This document shows, piece after piece, positions 259 through 7,864 of a stretch of 7,864 bases of DNA. A program made the translations under genes and the position numbers. The notes beneath the pieces are model-generated. The model saw only the letters and a program-made list of their open reading frames with translations, was not told the origin of the DNA and did not search any database. Every line of letters begins with the position of its first letter. The first letter of the stretch is position 1. The stretch lies in IMG/VR virus record IMGVR_UViG_2541047722_000016. The stretch is one strand, 5' to 3'. Source of the DNA: a virus (taxonomy: Duplodnaviria > Heunggongvirae > Uroviricota > Caudoviricetes).

Positions 259-477
259 CAGATGCCATTCATGACCTTTGAAATTCGCTTTGTATGGCTT
301 TCTGGCGGCATTCAGGAGAAGGTTTTCCCACAGGGTGCGAAGATAAACATCTTTCGCCCATGACTGTTTCAGAATGCTCCGGTACAACGGAATGTAACCA
401 GTTTTCTGGTTCTCCATCCTGTTGCTCCTGCGCTCGTGTGCGGCGCTGAAATCGTAGATTTTTGCTGTATTGCTCAT
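256..477 (-). pseudogene. Lambda O-like replication initiator, N-terminal 73 codons only; truncated by the IS insertion
   Basis: ATG at 477. The N-terminus MSNTAKIYDF resembles lambda O (MTNTAKILNF, from memory). The reading frame runs straight into the IS terminus at 258, and its TGA stop (256-258) is the first three bases of the IS inverted repeat (TGAACC). Confidence 0.5.
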
Positions 478-479
478 AA

Positions 480-752
480 CTACCTGCCTTGACGAAAGAC
501 CTTAAGAACATCGTTAAACTGACTTACGGATATGTCTTCTTTGAGAAGCTTTTCCAGAAATGCGTTTGGAATGAACGTATATCCCTCCTCTTTTGGTAGA
601 GACGGGAGCAACGCCCTCGCCTCAGCCTTCAGAAGCTCAGTTCTGGCAACTTTCACAAAAGAGATTTGAGTTCTTTCATCAATGGAACGAAGGAAGCGCA
701 AACGCTTAGCTTCTTTGTGTGTATCAGGTGGATTAAAGCCTTTGTTTCGCAT
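480..752 (-). CDS. Hypothetical protein (90 aa) between cII and the O-like gene
   Basis: Internal ATG at 752 of track ORF 480..1025, with GAGG 7 nt upstream (minus-strand ACGAGGTAATTAT-ATG). The upstream part of the track ORF overlaps cII in another frame and is rejected. No family recognised. Confidence 0.45.
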   Translation of the reverse strand: MRNKGFNPPDTHKEAKRLRFLRSIDERTQISFVKVARTELLKAEARALLPSLPKEEGYTFIPNAFLEKLLKEDISVSQFNDVLKVFRQGR

Positions 753-763
753 ATAATTACCTC

Positions 764-828
764 GTTGGATGTTGTTAAAATTCCATTTGTATTTGATCAG
801 AACGCTCGGTTGCCGCCGGGCGTTTTTT
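764..828 (+). ncRNA. oop: oop-like antisense RNA overlapping the 3' end of cII, with its intrinsic terminator
   Basis: Plus-strand hairpin CGCTCGG-TTGCCG-CCGGGCG (803-822, one G-U pair) followed by TTTTTT (823-828), lying inside the cII 3' coding region as in lambda. A perfect TATAAT at 752-757 overlaps the start codon of the downstream minus-strand gene, as the lambda Po -10 overlaps the O start. The 5' end is inferred, not seen. Confidence 0.5.
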
Positions 829-1068
829 ATTGGTGAGAATCGAAGCAACTTGTCGTGCCAATCGAGCCATGTCGTCGTCGACAACACCCCATTCAAGAAC
901 AGCAAGCAGCATTGAGAACTTTGGAATCCAGTCCCTCTTCCACCTGCTGATCTGCGACTTATCAACGCCCACAGCTTCCGCTGTCTTCTCAGTTCCAAGC
1001 ATTGCGATTTTGTTAAGCAACGCACTCTCGATTCTTAGAGCCTCGTTGCGTTTGTTTGCACGAACCAT
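775..1068 (-). CDS. cII: CII transcriptional activator (lambda cII-type, 97 aa)
   Basis: Internal ATG at 1068 of track ORF 775..1155 gives MVRANKRNEALRIESALLNKIAMLGTEKTAEAVGVDKSQISRWKRDWIPKFSMLLAVLEWGVVDDDMARLARQVASILTNKKRPAATERSDQIQMEF, near-identical to lambda CII as I recall it. RBS AAGGAAAT lies upstream. Confidence 0.9.
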   Translation of the reverse strand: MVRANKRNEALRIESALLNKIAMLGTEKTAEAVGVDKSQISRWKRDWIPKFSMLLAVLEWGVVDDDMARLARQVASILTNKKRPAATERSDQIQMEF

Positions 1069-1085
1069 ATGTAAGTATTTCCTTA
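1046..1085 (+). promoter_or_regulatory. PRE-like promoter with CII recognition repeats TTGC-N6-TTGC, reading rightward toward c2
   Basis: TTGCGTTTGTTTGC at 1046-1059 on the plus strand, inside the first codons of cII on the other strand, followed by AAGTAT at 1073-1078. This is the lambda PRE arrangement. Confidence 0.6.
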
Positions 1086-1101
1086 ACAAATAAGAAGTTA
1101 T

Positions 1102-1119
1102 GCGCATCAACTTATGCGC
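1102..1119 (-). promoter_or_regulatory. Stem-loop between nutR and cII (tR1-position hairpin)
   Basis: Minus-strand GCGCAT-AAGTTG-ATGCGC, a perfect 6-bp stem. There is no clean U-tract, so if it terminates it would be rho-dependent, like lambda tR1. Confidence 0.3.
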
Positions 1120-1126
1120 GTTGTAT

Positions 1127-1170
1127 TCCCGCATTTCGGCGGGAATGAGGACCATGACTGTTAAAGAGCA
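1127..1170 (-). promoter_or_regulatory. nutR-like site: boxA plus boxB hairpin
   Basis: Minus-strand TGCTCTTTAACAG (boxA, plus coordinates 1158-1170), then 13 nt, then TCCCGC-CGAAAT-GCGGGA (boxB, 1127-1144). The same 18-nt boxB recurs downstream of PL. Confidence 0.6.
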
Positions 1171-1176
1171 ATTTGC

Positions 1177-1362
1177 TTATGCCGCTTTGCGGTAAGCGCT
1201 TTCTTGATACTTCAGGGCGCCAGCTGTAACGACTTCCAGTCGATAGGCGTCTTTCTCTGGGATGACTTCCTTCCACTGAGAGACTGCTGCGTCGCTAATG
1301 CCTAACGCTTTAGCTACAGCACGCTGGGTTCCGAAGTGGTCGATAACATCTTTCTTGTACAT
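1177..1362 (-). CDS. cro: Cro repressor (P22 Cro-type, 61 aa)
   Basis: Track ORF MYKKDVIDHFGTQRAVAKALGISDAAVSQWKEVIPEKDAYRLEVVTAGALKYQESAYRKAA with an HTH motif; GGAG lies upstream of the ATG. Divergent from c2 across an operator region. Confidence 0.9.
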   Translation of the reverse strand: MYKKDVIDHFGTQRAVAKALGISDAAVSQWKEVIPEKDAYRLEVVTAGALKYQESAYRKAA

Positions 1363-1376
1363 AGACTCGCTCCGAA

Positions 1377-1442
1377 ATTAAAGAACACTTAAATTATCCA
1401 CTAAAGGAATCTTAAGTCAAGTTTATTTAAGATGTCTTAACT
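1377..1442. promoter_or_regulatory. OR region: three 18-bp P22-type operators overlapping PR (leftward) and PRM (rightward)
   Basis: ATTAAAGAACACTTAAAT (1377-1394), ACTAAAGGAATCTTAAGT (1400-1417) and ATTTAAGATGTCTTAACT (1425-1442) all fit ANTNAAG-N4-CTTNANT. PR on the minus strand: -35 TTGACT (1415-1420), 16-nt spacer, -10 GATAAT (1393-1398). Confidence 0.65.
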
Positions 1443-2093
1443 ATGAAAACTCAATTGATGGGAGAGCGCATTCGCGCTCGGAGAAAAGAACTCAAGATCA
1501 GGCAGGCCGCACTTGGAAAGATGGTCGGCGTGTCTAATGTTGCCATATCTCAGTGGGAACGCTCTGAGACAGAGCCAAATGGAGAGAATCTTCTCGCCCT
1601 GGCTAATGCGTTGAAGTGTTCCCCTGACTATCTGATGAAAGGAGAGGAAAGTCTTTCAAACATTGCCTATCACAGTAGGCATGATCCAAGAGGGTCATAC
1701 CCTCTGATTAGCTGGGTGAGCGCAGGATGCTGGATGGAAGCTGTAGAACCATATCATAAGCGTGCAATAGATAACTGGTACGATACAACCGTAGACTGTT
1801 CAGAAGATTCGTTTTGGTTGGACGTGAAGGGAGACTCAATGACGGCTCCGGCCGGTCTCAGTATCCCTGAAGGAATGATAATACTCGTCGATCCTGAAGT
1901 AGAGCCGCGTAACGGGAAACTGGTAGTTGCAAAGCTCGAAGGAGAAAACGAGGCAACTTTCAAGAAGTTAGTTATTGATGCAGGCAGGAAGTTTCTAAAA
2001 CCACTTAACCCACAATATCCGATGATCGAGATCAACGGAAACTGCAAAATCATCGGCGTAGTTGTCGATGCAAAACTAGCAAACCTTCCATAA
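1443..2093 (+). CDS. c2: CI-type immunity repressor (P22 c2-type): N-terminal HTH domain plus C-terminal LexA/S24-like autocleavage domain
   Basis: 216-aa track ORF MKTQLMGERIRARRKELKIRQAALGKMVGVSNVAISQWERSE..., with the C-terminal DVKGDSM...GK motif of S24 peptidases. No SD precedes the ATG. Closely matches P22 C2 as I recall it. Confidence 0.93.
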   Translation: MKTQLMGERIRARRKELKIRQAALGKMVGVSNVAISQWERSETEPNGENLLALANALKCSPDYLMKGEESLSNIAYHSRHDPRGSYPLISWVSAGCWMEAVEPYHKRAIDNWYDTTVDCSEDSFWLDVKGDSMTAPAGLSIPEGMIILVDPEVEPRNGKLVVAKLEGENEATFKKLVIDAGRKFLKPLNPQYPMIEINGNCKIIGVVVDAKLANLP

Positions 2094-2119
2094 GGGGGCA
2101 TTCGCCCCTTTTTTTTTAT
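2094..2119 (+). terminator. Intrinsic terminator immediately after c2
   Basis: GGGGC-ATTC-GCCCC hairpin (2095-2108) followed by a run of nine T. Confidence 0.7.
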
Positions 2120-2160
2120 TTCCTTTAAAAATCAAAGCCAAACTTAAGTTACGAAAGAAA

Positions 2161-2213
2161 ATTTAAGTTTTCTTCAAAAATGCTCTTGACCATTAATTAA
2201 AGAGATCTTAAAT
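2161..2213. promoter_or_regulatory. OL/PL: PL promoter with overlapping P22-type operators
   Basis: -35 TTGACC (2186-2191), 16-nt spacer, -10 TTAAAT (2208-2213), reading rightward. Operator ATTAAAGAGATCTTAAAT (2196-2213) overlaps the spacer and -10; a second, weaker operator ATTTAAGTTTTCTTCAAA is at 2161-2178. Confidence 0.6.
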
Positions 2214-2259
2214 TTAAGCCATCAGCAGGACGCTGGAAGCCAAACGGAACAGATTGGCA

Positions 2260-2301
2260 GGCTCTTTAACATTGATGGGATTGTCCCGCCGAAATGCGGG
2301 A
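2260..2301 (+). promoter_or_regulatory. nutL-like site: boxA plus boxB hairpin
   Basis: GGCTCTTTAACATT (2260-2273), then TCCCGC-CGAAAT-GCGGGA (2284-2301), identical to the nutR boxB, about 60-80 nt downstream of the PL -10. Confidence 0.6.
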
Positions 2302-2614
2302 ACCAAAGAGTAGTTGGCTTTGGGGTGACGTGAAGTGCAGCTGCACGACGGCAACCGGAAGATAAGCACCCGGCGCGTCACCGCCAAAGTCAATTCCATA
2401 GGCGTTATGCAGCCGCCACCATATTCAAGAAAGCTGCACAAGAGGTAGGAGGATTTATGTGAATGCATAACTTCAAAACCGAGGTTAATTAAATCTCTCG
2501 ATCCGAGCATCGACCTATTAGGTGGCGAGATGCTCTTTCTGCCCCTCAGTTCGAGGGGCCAGAAACCACTTTGCAATCACTATCAATTCCAAAGTTGTTT
2601 CATCGGAGGTCAAC

Positions 2615-2913
2615 ATGACAGTAGTCATTACATATCTGGCTGACGATAACGCCAGAAATCGCCGCAGAGCACGCAGACAGGCTCAACGTGAACAGGCGAT
2701 GCAAGACAGCGACTGGCGCGAAAAATTGCGCTAAAGCTCTCTGGTTGCGTCAGAGCGGATAAAGCAGCATCACTCGGAATCCTTCGCTGCAAGAAGGCAG
2801 ATGAAGTCGAGAGTAAACAGAATCGTATTTACTACCGCAAGCCACGCAGTGAAATGGGTGTGACTTGTGTTGGTCGCCAGAAAATGAAATTAGGCAGCAA
2901 ACCACTTATTTGA
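2615..2913 (+). pseudogene. N: N-like antitermination protein, split by a 1-nt frameshift
   Basis: ATG at 2615 with GGAGG 7 nt upstream. Frame A gives MTVVITYLADDNARNRRRARRQAQREQAMQDSDWREKLR and stops at 2732-2734; it carries an arginine-rich motif. The frame one nucleotide behind is open from 2692 and ends ...NRIYYRKPRSEMGVTCVGRQKMKLGSKPLI at the TGA 2911-2913, matching the lambda N C-terminus as I recall it. Both frames are open across the A5 run at 2721-2725. Confidence 0.6.
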
Positions 2914-2921
2914 GGTGATAT

Positions 2922-3392
2922 ATGACAAAATCATGGAGCGTACCTTTTCCTGAATCAGAAACTGAACATGATGGAATGCCTGTTTTCTGGAGATTCCAAG
3001 CGACAGTTGAAGAAGATGGAATCAAAATATTCGCACTTCAATATATAGCTTTTCATCAGACAGAGCATTATGCATGGTTGGTTCCTGCGCATTGGATTGT
3101 TAATTTTAAACCAGCACCAAATCAGTGGTTACAGGAATGGAAACAAAGGAGAAATAGATATGCAATTAAGAAAGTAGCAAAAAATGCAGAAAGATCTTTT
3201 GCATTCCCGACGAAGAAACTTGCCATTGAAAGTTTATTGCGCCGGAAGAAATACCATTTGATGAGAATCAAACAAGATTTGGCTGTTGTATCAACTCTTG
3301 TTGATGGGATGAAGAATATTGATACATCAACACCAGGTATTGAATATAACTTTGGACACAACCAAGAAACAGAAAACTGGGTGTTTTATTAG
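2922..3392 (+). CDS. Hypothetical protein, 156 aa, AT-rich gene in the N-to-cIII interval
   Basis: Track ORF with GAGGTGA 6 nt upstream of the ATG. It starts 8 nt after the N stop. Visibly more AT-rich than the flanks (about 40% GC in a hand-counted sample). Acidic N-terminal half, K/R-rich C-terminal half, no obvious transmembrane segment, no family recognised. Confidence 0.7.
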   Translation: MTKSWSVPFPESETEHDGMPVFWRFQATVEEDGIKIFALQYIAFHQTEHYAWLVPAHWIVNFKPAPNQWLQEWKQRRNRYAIKKVAKNAERSFAFPTKKLAIESLLRRKKYHLMRIKQDLAVVSTLVDGMKNIDTSTPGIEYNFGHNQETENWVFY

Positions 3393-3406
3393 TACGAATA
3401 AGCACT

Positions 3407-3434
3407 GTGTATTCATTCCAACGAGTGAATACAC
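3407..3434. repeat. Perfect 9-bp inverted repeat with a 10-bp spacer
   Basis: GTGTATTCA (3407-3415), 10 nt, TGAATACAC (3426-3434). No T-tract follows. Confidence 0.5.
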
Positions 3435-3496
3435 GGAGCAATGTCGCTCGTAACTAAACAGGAGCCGACTTGTTCTGATTATTGGAAATCTTCTTT

Positions 3497-3520
3497 GCCC
3501 TCCAGTGTGAGGGCTTTTTT
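3497..3520 (+). terminator. Intrinsic terminator downstream of the AT-rich gene
   Basis: GCCCTC-CAGTGT-GAGGGC hairpin (3497-3514) followed by TTTTTT (3515-3520). Confidence 0.7.
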
Positions 3521-3586
3521 ATATGCATACCAATAACGCTTCACTCGAGGCGTTTTCGTTATGCAATCAAACAGAAGGAGCATCCT

Positions 3587-3757
3587 ATGCAACAGTTCGC
3601 TATTGCAGGGGCGGCATCGGTTCGCCCTTTCAACCCGATTTTATCGGTACAGCATTCACGAAAAAACATTTTAACCGGAGCAGACTTTAAACAACCAAGA
3701 ATGAAAAGCTTGCTCGAAAAGCTTTGGGATATTTTGAAACAACAAGGCCGTCCATGA
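3587..3757 (+). CDS. cIII: CIII-like small protein (56 aa)
   Basis: Internal ATG of track ORF 3482..3757, with AGGAG 7 nt upstream. The N-terminus MQQFAIAG and the C-terminal SLLEKLWDILKQQGRP resemble lambda CIII as I recall it. Its position matches cIII on the lambda map. Confidence 0.45.
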   Translation: MQQFAIAGAASVRPFNPILSVQHSRKNILTGADFKQPRMKSLLEKLWDILKQQGRP

Positions 3758-3912
3758 GTTTTACGGATAACTGGTCAGACGAAGAATTCATTCGTCAGAT
3801 AAAAGAATTAATCGGTAACGAAGGAGATATTCATGTCACTTGCAACCACAGTGAAGGAGAGCAAGTTACAGAGACGCATGTACACGCAGAAAGCTCTCTG
3901 GTATCGCCATAA
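3754..3912 (+). CDS. Hypothetical small protein (52 aa) in the kil position
   Basis: ATG at 3754 overlaps the cIII-like stop (ATGA). Product MSFTDNWSDEEFIRQIKELIGNEGDIHVTCNHSEGEQVTETHVHAESSLVSP. No family recognised. Confidence 0.4.
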   Translation: MSFTDNWSDEEFIRQIKELIGNEGDIHVTCNHSEGEQVTETHVHAESSLVSP

Positions 3913-4013
3913 TGGTGACCGCGAAGGAATGCGGGTATGCCTTAATTTGTCCCGAGTCGAAGTATTAAATCAGCGTTATTTCCTTGGGCCGTGTCCATTC
4001 TGAGAGCAATCAT

Positions 4014-4619
4014 ATGAGCAAAGAATTTTACGCAAGACTGGCAGCTATTCAGGAGAATCTGAACGCGCCAAAGAATCAGTACAACTCATTCGGCAAATAT
4101 AAATACAGAAGCTGCGAAGATATTCTTGAAGGCGTTAAGCCGTTACTGAACGGTCTGTTTTTATCAATCAGCGATGAAGTTGTGTTGATTGGTGATCGGT
4201 ATTACGTGAAAGCCACGGCAACTATTACCGATGGCGAAAACAGTCATACGGCAACCGCTCTTGCACGAGAGGAAGAAAGCAAGAAAGGAATGGATTCTGC
4301 ACAAGTTACGGGAGCTACAAGCTCTTATGCACGCAAGTATTGCCTCAATGGTTTGTTCGGCATTGATGATGCGAAAGATGCAGATACAGACGAGCATAAA
4401 CATCAGCAGAACGCAGCAGCAAAGCAATCAAAACCATCACTTACACCTGAACAGGTTCTAAAAGCATTCACTGACGCAGCAATGCAGAAAAACACCGTAG
4501 AAGAGCTTAAACAGGCGTTCGCCAAAGCGTGGAAGATGCTCGAAGGGACGCCGGAGCAGCACAAAGCGCAGGACGTTTACAACATCAGACGAGACGAATT
4601 AGAAGGGGCAACTGCTTAA
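4014..4619 (+). CDS. erf: Erf-family single-strand annealing recombinase (P22 Erf-type)
   Basis: Internal ATG at 4014 of the track ORF (which opens at a TTG). Product MSKEFYARLAAIQENLNAPKNQYNSFGKYKYRSCEDILEGVKPLL... matches P22 Erf as I recall it. Confidence 0.85.
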   Translation: MSKEFYARLAAIQENLNAPKNQYNSFGKYKYRSCEDILEGVKPLLNGLFLSISDEVVLIGDRYYVKATATITDGENSHTATALAREEESKKGMDSAQVTGATSSYARKYCLNGLFGIDDAKDADTDEHKHQQNAAAKQSKPSLTPEQVLKAFTDAAMQKNTVEELKQAFAKAWKMLEGTPEQHKAQDVYNIRRDELEGATA

Positions 4620-5002
4620 TGGCACATTCGATTACAGTAAGACTAAACAAACCCGCAAGAGAGTTTCAGGGCGGGGAAAATATCGGATTCAACATCCGTG
4701 CTGGCGTTCAGTATTACGATCGCCAGACAAAAAAGAAAGAATGGACAAACTACAGCGCCGTTGTATTTGCCAAGCCGGGAGCGCAAGCGGATTACTATCG
4801 TAGCGTTCTGGTTGAAGGAGGCATTGTAGAAATTACCGGAGAAAACATCAGGGTTGATGTTTATCAGGGGCAAAATGGTCAATCAATCACTCTTGAATTA
4901 CTGAATGCAAAGATTGGATTTGCAACTTCAGGAAACAGCCAACAGCAGCAAAGTAGCAATCATCAAAATAATCCTGAATACGACGATTCCATCCCATTCT
5001 GA
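4619..5002 (+). CDS. SSB-like OB-fold protein with an acidic C-terminal tail
   Basis: ATG at 4619 overlaps the erf stop (TAATG). Product MAHSITVRLNKPAREFQGGENIGF... ends ...NPEYDDSIPF, which resembles the bacterial SSB C-terminal DDDIPF tail. Confidence 0.65.
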   Translation: MAHSITVRLNKPAREFQGGENIGFNIRAGVQYYDRQTKKKEWTNYSAVVFAKPGAQADYYRSVLVEGGIVEITGENIRVDVYQGQNGQSITLELLNAKIGFATSGNSQQQQSSNHQNNPEYDDSIPF

Positions 5003-5025
5003 TTTAGAAAAATAAGGATTTAATT

Positions 5026-5322
5026 ATGCCAGCGCCTTTGTATGGTGCGGATGACCCGCGCCGCTGTTCCGGCAATTCCGTATCGGAGGTGCTGGATAAA
5101 TTCAGAAAAAACTACGATCGAATAATGTCTCTACCGCAGGAAACGAAAGAGGAAAAGGAATTTCGCCACTGTATATGGCTTGCAGAGAAAGAAGAACGCG
5201 AGCGAATTTACCAGACATCAATCCGACCATTCCGCAAAGCCACATATACCCACTTCCCTGAATATATCGACCCGCGCCTGCGTAATTACCGCTCACGCTA
5301 TGGCGCTATCAGTAATGACTGA
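5026..5322 (+). CDS. abc2: Abc2-like anti-RecBCD protein (98 aa)
   Basis: AAGGA lies upstream of the ATG. The 98-aa length and the position just after erf match P22 abc2; the sequence match is recalled, not verified. Confidence 0.5.
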   Translation: MPAPLYGADDPRRCSGNSVSEVLDKFRKNYDRIMSLPQETKEEKEFRHCIWLAEKEERERIYQTSIRPFRKATYTHFPEYIDPRLRNYRSRYGAISND

Positions 5323-5416
5323 GGAATTTACCATGAGAGGACTTGCTTAAGAGAAAGAGTTTCGGTTCTGTTAATGACAACAAATATCTGAATGCGATGT
5401 GGCGGAGTGGGAAGAA

Positions 5417-5935
5417 ATGAAACAAATGTCACTAATTGAGATGGATGGTTTTCTGAAAGGTAAATGCATCCCAAGTGATTTAAAGGTTAACGAAACAAAC
5501 GCTGAATACCTTGTCCGTAAGTTCGGTGAACTTGAATCAAAACTGGAAACGGCGTTGCGGGAGTGTAGTTCTGCTGGAATCACGATTGATAACCTTGAGG
5601 CTAAATGCGCGAAGATGGCTGCTGAAAATACCTCACTTAAGCAATCTGAGAAGGAATTTAATGACTTTTGTCGTGAGGAGTTTAGCGAATGGGAAGATGA
5701 TGTTACTGAAACCCCAGCCACCGATGCTTTTCTGGCTGAAGTGCGGGCGCAGGGGGTGGATGCTGCTATAGAAGCTGCAAAAAATCTGGTGGCCCAAGAA
5801 TATGAGTATAAGGATTTCAAAGCGGCGCAGAGTGATTGCTGTATGCACCCTGGTTCAGACCTGGTAGGGAAGGTTGAAATGACTGAGTGGTTAGTTGACT
5901 TTGCTGCCCAGCTTCGCAAAGGAGGCAACCAGTGA
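5417..5935 (+). CDS. Hypothetical coiled-coil protein in the ea region (172 aa)
   Basis: ATG at 5417 inside track ORF 5399..5935 (which opens at a GTG), with GGAG about 11 nt upstream. The central part is E/K/A-rich and predicted coiled coil. Confidence 0.5.
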   Translation: MKQMSLIEMDGFLKGKCIPSDLKVNETNAEYLVRKFGELESKLETALRECSSAGITIDNLEAKCAKMAAENTSLKQSEKEFNDFCREEFSEWEDDVTETPATDAFLAEVRAQGVDAAIEAAKNLVAQEYEYKDFKAAQSDCCMHPGSDLVGKVEMTEWLVDFAAQLRKGGNQ

Positions 5936-6231
5936 CTGTATGTCTTATTGATAAACGTCGACGTGGGCAACAAATACCATCTGTTGAAATGCCGAATCAC
6001 ACATGGTTTTGCGTACTTGATATCGATGGTATGGATACGTTGGTTGACACTCGTCATTACTGCGATACCGCAACAGCTACTCCGGCGAAAGCAAAGAAAA
6101 TGGCTGCTCTGATAGAAAACTGGACTCCACCTGATGGTTGGTGCAATGGGAATGATCGAGATTGGCACGAAAAAATGAAGGGCTATATCTGCGATTTTTT
6201 ACGTAAATGCAACGGCTTCAGGGGGATGTGA
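5932..6231 (+). CDS. Hypothetical protein (99 aa), GTG start
   Basis: GTG at 5932 with GGAGG 6 nt upstream; it overlaps the preceding stop (GTGA). Several Cys residues; no family recognised. Confidence 0.5.
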   Translation: MTVCLIDKRRRGQQIPSVEMPNHTWFCVLDIDGMDTLVDTRHYCDTATATPAKAKKMAALIENWTPPDGWCNGNDRDWHEKMKGYICDFLRKCNGFRGM

Positions 6232-6232
6232 T

Positions 6233-6805
6233 ATGACCAAAATTAACTATCAGGCACTGCGTGAGGCGGCAGAACGTGCAATTCCGGCAATGGAACGCCT
6301 GTTAATGTTGCCAGTTGATGATGATTTGTTAAGTGAACAGGAACTTAAGGATTACGGTGTGGATATTGATGCGCTCAACGCCTTCAAATTTCTGACCGGA
6401 CCAGAAACCGTGCTGGCGCTGCTGGATGAACGGGAAAGAAACCAGCAATACATCAAACGCCGCGACCAGGAGAACGAGGAAATTGCGCTAACGGTAGGGA
6501 AGCTGCGCGTTGAGCTGGAAGCTGCAGAGAAGCGCATTGCAGAACTGGAAGCCGAACCTGTAAGCCAAACTTACAAGTTGAACGAGCTGTCGGGCAACTA
6601 TCCGGTAACTCCGGATGGTTGGATAAGCTGTAGTGAGCGAATGCCCGCTCAAGATGATTGGATTTTAATTTATTCAAAGCACGGCGAGTATATGGCAGGA
6701 CAGGTACAAGGGGAATACGTGGAGTTGAGCGACGGCACTTTATCGTGGTTAGGGAACGCCTTGTACTGGATGCCTCTACCGGAACCGCCGCAGGAGGTTA
6801 ATTGA
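6233..6805 (+). CDS. ead/Ea22-like protein with a DUF551-like C-terminal domain
   Basis: ATG 1 nt after the preceding stop. The N-terminus MTKINYQALREAAERA is typical of Ea22-like proteins as I recall them; a central coiled coil is followed by a C-terminal ...DGWISCSERMP...WMPLPEPP. Confidence 0.6.
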   Translation: MTKINYQALREAAERAIPAMERLLMLPVDDDLLSEQELKDYGVDIDALNAFKFLTGPETVLALLDERERNQQYIKRRDQENEEIALTVGKLRVELEAAEKRIAELEAEPVSQTYKLNELSGNYPVTPDGWISCSERMPAQDDWILIYSKHGEYMAGQVQGEYVELSDGTLSWLGNALYWMPLPEPPQEVN

Positions 6806-7089
6806 TGGTCTCCTTCGCGAAATATACGATTATTGACTGGATAGCATTCATTCAGGTTTTGCTCATCTGGTTTTATATGGCTTACAGGAGTGGACAGTGG
6901 ATTGTCAGTGTAGCCTGTAGCAATGGATGGCGTTGGTGGAACCGAAAGAATAAAAAAGCGCTGGCCTTGGCTTCGTTTTACGAAGCATTCAATCTTAACA
7001 GTCTTCAGCCTGGTTTTGTCGTTGTAGTCACCACTCAAAGCGGCATGACGATACAAATTCACAAGCCAAAGGAGGAAGGTCGTGGCTAA
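6805..7089 (+). CDS. Small putative membrane protein (94 aa)
   Basis: ATG at 6805 overlaps the preceding stop (TGATG), with GGAGG 8 nt upstream. One hydrophobic segment (IIDWIAFIQVLLIWFYMAY) near the N-terminus. Confidence 0.5.
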   Translation: MVSFAKYTIIDWIAFIQVLLIWFYMAYRSGQWIVSVACSNGWRWWNRKNKKALALASFYEAFNLNSLQPGFVVVVTTQSGMTIQIHKPKEEGRG

Positions 7090-7366
7090 CCTGCAACTTG
7101 CCGTTAAAGGTGAATACTTCGATGCCATGATTCGCGGAGAGAAAACGGAAGAGTATCGCCTGTGTAATGACTACTGGAATAAGCGAATTATGTTCCGCGA
7201 GTATGACCGCCTGATTATCACAAAGGGATATCCGAAGCGCGACGATTCCAGCCGCAGAATTGACGTCCCGTATGACGGATATGAAATCAAGACAATCACA
7301 CATCCGCACTTCGGCGATAAACCGGTAAAGGTGTTCGCTATAAAGGTGAATATCGACAATGAATGA
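7082..7366 (+). CDS. ASCH (PUA-like) domain protein, GTG start
   Basis: GTG at 7082 with GGAGG 6 nt upstream; overlaps the preceding gene by 8 nt. The product contains GEKTEEYR, fitting the ASCH G-x-K-x-x-E-x-R motif. Confidence 0.5.
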   Translation: MANLQLAVKGEYFDAMIRGEKTEEYRLCNDYWNKRIMFREYDRLIITKGYPKRDDSSRRIDVPYDGYEIKTITHPHFGDKPVKVFAIKVNIDNE

Positions 7367-7438
7367 TAATCCTCGCACTCGCGGGGATTTCTTTTATCTG
7401 AACTCGCTACGGCGGGTTTTGTTTTATGGAGATGATAA

Positions 7439-7606
7439 ATGCACTTCCGAGTCACAGGTGAATGGAATGGAGAGCCATTCAACAGAGTTATCGAAGCAGA
7501 GAACATCAACGACTGCTATGACCACTGGATGCTGTGGGCGCAGATAGCACATGCAGACGTAACTAATATTCGAATTGAAGAACTGAAAGAACACCAAGCC
7601 GCCTGA
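7439..7606 (+). CDS. Small hypothetical protein (55 aa), not in the ORF track
   Basis: ATG at 7439 with GGAG 7 nt upstream. Product MHFRVTGEWNGEPFNRVIEAENINDCYDHWMLWAQIAHADVTNIRIEELKEHQAA. The stop lies inside the terminator hairpin. Confidence 0.4.
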   Translation: MHFRVTGEWNGEPFNRVIEAENINDCYDHWMLWAQIAHADVTNIRIEELKEHQAA

Positions 7607-7620
7607 TGGCGGTTTTTTAT
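7597..7620 (+). terminator. Intrinsic terminator
   Basis: AGCCGCC-TGAT-GGCGGTT hairpin followed by TTTTTT (7613-7618). Confidence 0.6.
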
Positions 7621-7663
7621 TGCCTGATTTGCAGGTTCGATTCCCTATTCGGAGATAGCACTC

Positions 7664-7864
7664 ATGCAACACGAACTACAACCTGATTCACTGGTTGATT
7701 TGAAATTCATCATGGCCGATACTGGCTTCGGTAAAACCTTCATCTATGACCGGATTAAGTCCGGCGACCTGCCAAAAGCCAAAGTTATCCACGGGCGAGC
7801 AAGATGGTTATATCGTGACCATTGTGAATTCAAAAATAAGCTCTTAAGCCGCGCCAATGGGTAA
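7664..7864 (+). CDS. AlpA-family / excisionase-like DNA-binding protein (66 aa)
   Basis: ATG at 7664 with GGAG 9 nt upstream. The HTH-like core DLKFIMADTGFGKTFIYDRIKSGDLP is typical of AlpA/Xis-type regulators. The stop coincides with the last base of the window. Confidence 0.6.
   Translation: MQHELQPDSLVDLKFIMADTGFGKTFIYDRIKSGDLPKAKVIHGRARWLYRDHCEFKNKLLSRANG

Follow-up and report, generated by a model that had tools for sequence, protein, structure and literature searches.

The nutL and nutR boxB hairpins of an HK620/CUS-3-type lambdoid prophage remnant and their match to the arginine-rich motif of N

The stretch of DNA that was analysed (the window, 7,864 nucleotides) is, judged by its sequence, a CUS-3/HK620-like prophage remnant of the P22-like (Lederbergvirus) type from E. 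coli. The window is near-identical to prophages of ATCC 11775, of the APEC O1/O2 strains and of others, and its PL-N region is 93% identical to that of phage CUS-3. Positions 259-7864 differ from FDAARGOS_1301 by one base only, a deletion in the N gene, and the IS sequence at bases 1-258, which is the end of an IS3-family element, is also common to both. In FDAARGOS_1301, the IS3-family element adjoins a replication gene and an injection-protein gene that are both truncated, and this junction indicates that the lineage carries a prophage remnant beside torI/dsdC, without most of the late genes. When positions 259-7864 were compared with the ATCC 11775 prophage, a second length difference of 1 nt was observed besides the N deletion. 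The DUF4752 gene is annotated as frameshifted in ATCC 11775; in the window (6802-7089), as in FDAARGOS_1301, its reading frame is uninterrupted.

The early region has the same architecture as that of lambda, with promoter, boxA, boxB, N as the first gene of the PL operon, and nutR between cro and cII. A consensus scan identified a PL-like early leftward promoter on the plus strand (2186-2214; TTGACC, 17 nt, TAAATT), whose position equals that of the pL annotated in HK620, and a PR-like early rightward promoter on the minus strand (1393-1420). A prophage repressor gene, P22 c2-like and of the LexA family, lies between the two nut sites (1443-2093, plus strand). The cro gene (1177-1362, minus strand) was called as an open reading frame and is annotated as a Cro/CI family regulator in identical prophages, and cII (775-1068, minus strand) is the first gene past nutR and the tR1 region. 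The N antiterminator gene (2615-2913, plus strand) is preceded by a GGAGG ribosome-binding site ahead of its start at 2615; it was identified by its translations, by alignment with intact alleles and by PHROG 271, and is inactivated in the window. Two intrinsic-terminator-like hairpins were found further along the PL operon by a terminator scan (3497-3560, plus strand), and are likely to be barriers that an N-modified polymerase would have to read through.

The 18-mer TCCCGCCGAAATGCGGGA is present at 2284-2301 on the plus strand, with an exact copy at 1127-1144 on the minus strand; the preliminary description had listed an identical boxB at nutL and nutR, and that is what the two exact copies are. 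No further copy was found in the window at three or fewer mismatches, and none is expected (0 in 200 shuffles). The boxA sequence GCTCTTTAACA occurs exactly 5' of both copies (2261-2271, plus strand; 1169-1159, minus strand), with boxA-boxB spacers of 14 nt and 16 nt. In full, the nutL boxA is GGCUCUUUAACA (2260-2271, plus strand), an exact motif match that is the same as the start of the annotated HK620 nutL, and the nutR boxA, likewise exact to the motif, is UGCUCUUUAACA (1159-1170, minus strand). Through GCTCTTTAACA, both sites thus have a boxA (consensus CGCUCUUUAACA) close to the 5' side of the hairpin, and the same layout was seen in all relatives. The nutL site (2260-2301) lies between the PL-like promoter and N (2615), and the nutR site (1170-1127) between cro and cII behind the PR-like promoter (1420-1393), each in the transcript sense. 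Given the promoter positions (2186-2214, plus strand; 1420-1393, minus strand), both loops have the sequence CGAAAU when transcribed from the early promoters.

The nutL boxB hairpin, UCCCGC-CGAAAU-GCGGGA, is assigned by its motif, fold, conservation and stem covariation. The nutR hairpin is assigned by motif and fold, and is identical to the annotated nutR boxB of HK620. The predicted fold of the 18-mer is a 6-nt loop on a stem of 6 bp (−9.7 kcal/mol, z = −2.9), and at nutR two more flanking U-A pairs lengthen the stem to 8 bp. The folding of a longer nutL context was unexceptional (z = −0.75). A search of the whole window against Rfam in E-value mode returned no nut or boxB family, the sole match being a chance hit to RsmY (E = 0.19). 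As had been stated at the outset, the loop differs from that of lambda, with the six nucleotides CGAAAU in place of GAAGA (lambda nutL) or GAAAA (lambda nutR). The phage phi21 boxB also has a 6-nt loop (CUAACC), so the length of the loop in the window has precedent.

A second hairpin (CCAAAG...CUUUGG) and a GU-rich, boxC-like tract lie 3' of the nutL boxB (2303-2332, plus strand). Both are kept in the window, phi21, lambda and P22, despite their differing boxB elements; the tract reads UUUGGGG in the window, phi21 and lambda, and UUUGGAC in P22. In the CUS-3 annotation, the second hairpin (2303-2332) is part of the 'bsq5 boundary sequence'.

To compare the hairpin across relatives, a divergent set was assembled from a protein search, which detected the same motif in Cronobacter, Salmonella and metagenomic proteins, from Pantoea and Phytobacter loci, and from 80 IMG/VR loci; a scan of species-representative genomes contributed 5 loci. 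In another set, of 80 loci picked by close similarity of N, the nutL boxB was conserved in 76. As boxB is invariant within E. coli, the loci of close relatives are uninformative, and only the roughly 17 variants of other hosts contribute covariation. Across the 17 distinct boxB variants of the class (for example, UCUCCAC-CGAAAU-GUGGAGA), 86.8% of the cells pair, and compensatory changes are present at four of the eight pairs. None of 500 shuffles reached the covariation score of the stem, and slid registers scored far lower. The stem is variable, while G, A and U of the loop are the same in all 17 variants. Lack of conservation of the hairpin beside boxA in relatives had been named as grounds for giving up the assignment; instead, the hairpin is conserved there, with compensatory changes in its stem. 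In the Pantoea-type phages (L224, L226-L245), the nutR boxB stem keeps an internal mismatch (GCUCCCGC-CGAAAU-GC[A/C]GGAGC), and the nutL boxB is without it.

These patterns bear on whether the repeats are boxB elements at all. As perfect 6-bp inverted repeats present in two copies that flank the immunity region, they could be proposed to act as DNA, as palindromic sites for a phage or host protein. However, at both sites their asymmetric centre is always CGAAAT on the transcribed sense strand, which a symmetric site would not need, the UG pairs found in seven cells among the variants suit RNA pairing and not DNA pairing, and the operators are located elsewhere in the HK620 annotation. We regard this proposal as having almost no chance of being correct. 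It is also very improbable, if slightly less so, that the hairpins serve mainly in another RNA role, as intrinsic terminators, as sites of processing by RNase III or another enzyme, or as stabilisers of the transcript. Stable G+C-rich hairpins in 5' leaders would suit such a role, and RNase III processes the N leader of lambda. Against this, neither hairpin is followed by a U tract or called by the terminator scan; furthermore, a boxB that is recognised by a protein would be predicted to have a fixed boxA partner, a loop that is conserved while the stem varies, and a strict match to the N motif, all of which are seen.

The cells of the alignment that do not pair are nearly all at the loop-closing position: most variants have C·U there, one has U·U and four have A-U. 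In the folds of the four A-U variants, the stem reaches 8 bp and is capped by GAAA or GAGA as a tetraloop (A-GAAA-U, A-GAGA-U). One phage type has A-GAAA-U at nutL and C-GAAA-U at nutR, and the same N. As A-U takes the place of C·U around GAAA or GAGA in relatives, the six loop nucleotides are best taken as a GNRA tetraloop with C·U as its closing mismatch. The boxB of the window would then be a 6-bp G+C-rich stem topped by the C·U mismatch and a GAAA (GNRA) tetraloop, a geometry that is predicted from the variants. The pentaloops of lambda and P22 mimic the GNRA fold by extruding one base, as seen in published NMR structures.

The element itself is already known and annotated. The record of phage HK620 (AF335538), which we take to date from 2001, contains a 'putative N-utilization leftward' nutL and a 'putative N-utilization rightward' nutR. 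Its nutL (boxA, spacer and boxB) and its nutR boxB are base-for-base equal to those of the window; the first base of the nutR boxA differs (CGCUCUUUAACA in HK620, UGCUCUUUAACA in the window). The novelty is therefore low, the sequences being identical to those annotated in that record. Phages CUS-3, HK140, HK630 and mEp213 have nut sites and N of the same type. HK620 and the window differ in the immunity region, which is 434-like in HK620 and P22 c2-like in the window, in the C-terminal module of N, which is H-19B-like in HK620 and phi21-like in the window as in CUS-3, and in the frameshift that is present in the N gene of the window. The N-terminus of HK620 N is identical over the first 30 residues, and over about 55 when compared with the repaired window allele.

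The putative cognate N gene, with its arginine-rich motif, sits just 3' of nutL (2615-2913) and is frameshifted in the window. Residues 1-30 of N are MTVVITYLADDNARNRRRARRQAQREQAMQ, and the motif NARNRRRARRQAQ occupies residues 12-24 in the open reading frame translation (2648-2686, plus strand). As the preliminary description had stated, the motif differs from that of lambda (NARNRRRARRQAQ versus DAQTRRRERRAEKQAQW). Its alignment to the motifs of phi21 (TAKSRYKARRAEL), P22 (NAKTRRHERRRKL) and lambda needs no gaps. The intact N of the HK620-type motif is represented by WP_000219332.1. Repaired N matches PHROG 271, 'anti-termination protein N-like', over residues 1-98 (E = 2.9e-36); its score against Pfam PF25694 (N_peptide) was 19.4 bits, below the cut-off of 27.9.

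N is a patchwork. HK620, HK140 and mEp213 have residues 1-64 in common with it, phi21 N is 92% identical to it over residues 37-99, and residues 63-99 align to residues 75-110 of lambda N in the antitermination complex 6GOV, so that the C-terminal polymerase-binding segment of lambda N has a homologue in the window. In other phages, the same N-terminus is joined to an H-19B-like C-terminus. N thus appears as a three-part mosaic in the window, L001, L003, L004 and L205, with an HK620-like, motif-bearing N-terminus, a middle part (LARKIALKLSGCVRADKAASLG) in common with phi21, and a C-terminus that is either lambda/phi21-like (...GVTCVGRQKMKLGSKPLI) or H-19B/P22-like (...LPNVAIYAAGYRKSKQLTAR), depending on the phage. 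As the C-terminal modules vary within each motif class, boxB tracks the motif and not the remainder of N.

The motif and the boxB were then compared among named phages. The motif DAQTRRRERRAEKQAQW accompanies GCCCU-GAAGA-AGGGC in lambda, Sf6 and HK544; NAKTRRHERRRKL accompanies GCGCU-GACAA-AGCGC in P22, SH2026Stx1 and ENT47670; TAKSRYKARRAEL accompanies CUCAAC-CUAACC-GUUGAG in phi21, mEp235, mEpX1, VT1-Sakai and HK629; and NARNRRRARRQAQ accompanies UCCCGC-CGAAAU-GCGGGA in the window, CUS-3, HK140 and HK620. In lambda, the loop has 5 nt, the stem is GCCCU and the boxA is a variant one (CGCUCUUA), whereas the window has a hexaloop or C·U-closed GNRA tetraloop. The window is not of the lambda type: its stem is UCCCGC, its loop CGAAAU and its motif NARNRRRARRQAQ, as against GCCCU/AGGGC, GAAAA or GAAGA, and DAQTRRRERRAEKQAQW. 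P22 gp24 has the same layout, the consensus boxA and a related motif core (NAKTRRHERR), and the repressor and cro of the window are P22-like; P22 differs in its GACAA pentaloop and in the R-R-H-E of its motif. The nearest system is phi21, which has the consensus boxA GCUCUUUAACA and, as in the window, a 6-nt loop on a short stem, and whose motif is equal in length and register (TAKSRYKARRAE versus NARNRRRARRQA). While the loop length agrees, the window is not of the phi21 type either, since it combines a GAAA-core loop (C-GAAA-U) with R-R within an R-R-R motif, and phi21 combines CUAACC with Y-K. By these sequence comparisons, the class is closest to phi21, as a sister, and is no wholly separate design.

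A comparison of boxB and N motifs across lambdoid phages had been proposed as a check, and it came out as predicted. In a set of ~300 loci, the R-R-R motifs (NARNRRRARR, and also DTAKNRRR[A/L/E]RR) all occur with a GAAA-core loop, and the R-Y-K/R motifs of the phi21 type all occur with CUNNYN loops, namely CUAACC, CUAACA, CUUACA, CUAGCA and CUGACA. Counted as distinct combinations at nutL, the classes of motif and loop agree in 20/22 for R-R-R and in 10/12 for R-Y-K/R; the loops of the other four are unrelated, and the script seems to have picked the wrong hairpin in these cases. At nutR, the agreement is complete (23/23 and 10/10). No combination of a motif of one class with a loop of the other was found at nutL or nutR among the ~300 loci. 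Furthermore, the MTVVITYLA backbone occurs with both motif types and the loop switches along with the motif, so the association amounts to more than one deep split.

The start of N is ~330 bp from nutL, so the two are expected to be inherited jointly, and linkage together with shared descent explains part of the association. The nutR site is 1.15-3 kb away from the N/nutL side; in the IMG/VR loci with both boxB copies (L005-L204), nutL and nutR are 1152 to 2990 bp apart. The identical boxB pair encloses at least seven unrelated repressor types, the lambda cI, P22 c2-like and HK620 types among them. nutR is therefore the stronger evidence, as it lies beyond the swapped immunity modules and is still matched to N. 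In L152 (IMGVR_UViG_2718218171_000002; ~4530-4590, minus strand), nutR has the nutL version of the boxA-boxB spacer (CATTGATGGGATTG) within nutR-like flanks, which suggests gene conversion between the inverted nut sites.

It had been suggested that matched divergence of boxB and motif would indicate a distinct specificity class. The comparison supports this suggestion in the form of co-occurrence, and we consider a distinct class to be well supported as a prediction. The same sequences could also be genuine nut sites that form no separate class, the differences in motif and loop being neutral drift and N being interchangeable between these sites and the boxB of phi21, lambda or P22. Such drift would fit the motif core xA(K/R)xRxxARR held in common with phi21 in the same register, a loop that is also of six nucleotides, and the literal GAAA within it, given that lambda N recognises a GNRA-like fold, as established by NMR work on lambda N-boxB. 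A paper whose title is cited in PMC8022706 is, by that title, concerned with P22 boxB requirements that overlap those of lambda. However, neutral drift does not sit well with the absence of mixed motif/loop combinations at either nut site among the ~300 loci, with the switch of the loop along with the motif type on the MTVVITYLA backbone, or with a nutR that is matched to N despite free exchange of the intervening immunity module. We consider it unlikely.

Our preferred reading, to which we assign a probability of roughly 85%, is that the hairpins are the nutL and nutR boxB elements of an HK620/CUS-3-type lambdoid prophage, and that they would form a motif-loop specificity class of their own, sister to that of phi21. 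In an intact phage of this type, polymerase from PL or PR would transcribe boxA, the putative binding site of host NusB/NusE, and then boxB ~15 nt later. The arginine-rich N-terminal helix of N (NARNRRRARR) would bind the boxB RNA hairpin, and the tethered N, together with the Nus factors, would turn the polymerase termination-resistant. The modified polymerase would be expected to read through the tR1 and tL terminators, and through the terminator-like hairpins of the PL operon at 3497-3560; in the HK620 record, tR1 directly follows nutR. We infer RNA binding, antitermination and specificity of the nut/N pair from sequence comparison.

Whether the class also has a recognition mode of its own is a further step, and one for which we put the chances at even. 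The HK620-type pair would then be a fourth natural mode of recognition between N peptide and boxB, orthogonal to the other three, in which R-R-R reads a C·U-closed GNRA tetraloop; motif position 17 (R17 here, Y17 in the phi21 type) and the identity of the loop (GAAA or CUNNYN) would together be the specificity switch. Arginine-rich peptides are known for promiscuous binding, and a difference in sequence therefore does not have to imply exclusive specificity. Structures have been solved for the lambda, P22 and phi21 classes. The phi21 N peptide-RNA complex is PDB entry 1NYB, and no solved structure matching the motif of the window was found in the PDB. Full-text searches of the literature turned up no binding, antitermination, structural or specificity study of this motif or boxB class. 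The same line of reasoning has been used for phage epsilon34, where a new BoxB specificity was deduced from a divergent N-terminus of N (PMC2629481). In a paper on phage L, an identical boxB and a similar N-terminus are equated with the same specificity (PMC8022706).

N itself was suspected of being broken, and it is. Relative to the intact alleles of CUS-3, ATCC 11775 and FDAARGOS_1301 (300 bp, 99 aa), the gene has a 1-nt deletion at 2706/2707, one A of GAAC being lost within CAAGAACAG. The frame shifts after codon 30, and the first frame stops at 2732-2734, after 39 codons; the product would be a 39-residue peptide with 30 native residues, including the motif, followed by nine that are out of frame. 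The C-terminal part goes on in the −1 frame to 2913. The intact allele is present in about 145 related loci, and among the loci fetched the deleted allele was seen only in the window and in L097. Programmed frameshifting was considered and rejected, since the gene lacks a slippery site and the intact allele is by far the commoner. A selected decoy peptide consisting of the arginine-rich motif alone was also considered unlikely, with the deleted allele in 2 of ~146 loci.

In lambda N, segments outside the arginine-rich motif bind NusA and the polymerase. Cut to 39 residues, the N of the window is without the equivalents of these segments, and the prophage would thus be predicted to be incapable of antitermination on its own. 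The nut sites of the window would accordingly be orphan cis elements of a decaying prophage. As N is inactivated in this remnant, the early operons would not be fully expressible even if the prophage were derepressed.

Pairs of N and boxB serve as textbook examples of how a peptide recognises RNA, and they are in wide use as tools for RNA tethering. The comparison adds a rule that can be tested, in which R-R-R goes with a GAAA-core loop and R-Y-K/R with CUNNYN. If the fourth recognition mode proved true, it would provide a new orthogonal RNA-tethering pair, as well as a natural series for the evolution of arginine-rich motif specificity. The residual interest lies in the clean motif-loop rule and in the tetraloop reading, and the practical point for the window is small.

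Of 5426 complete E. coli genomes, 521 contain the nutL segment (2250-2400), as do 32 phage records, and the exact boxB occurs in at least 120 IMG/VR contigs; the class is thus carried by about one tenth of complete E. coli genomes. An E. coli-type nutL-N-nutR module with 97% protein identity was also identified on L221 (JAJXBQ010000254.1), a 4.2-kb contig in a Segatella copri MAG, where it is most likely a binning contaminant.
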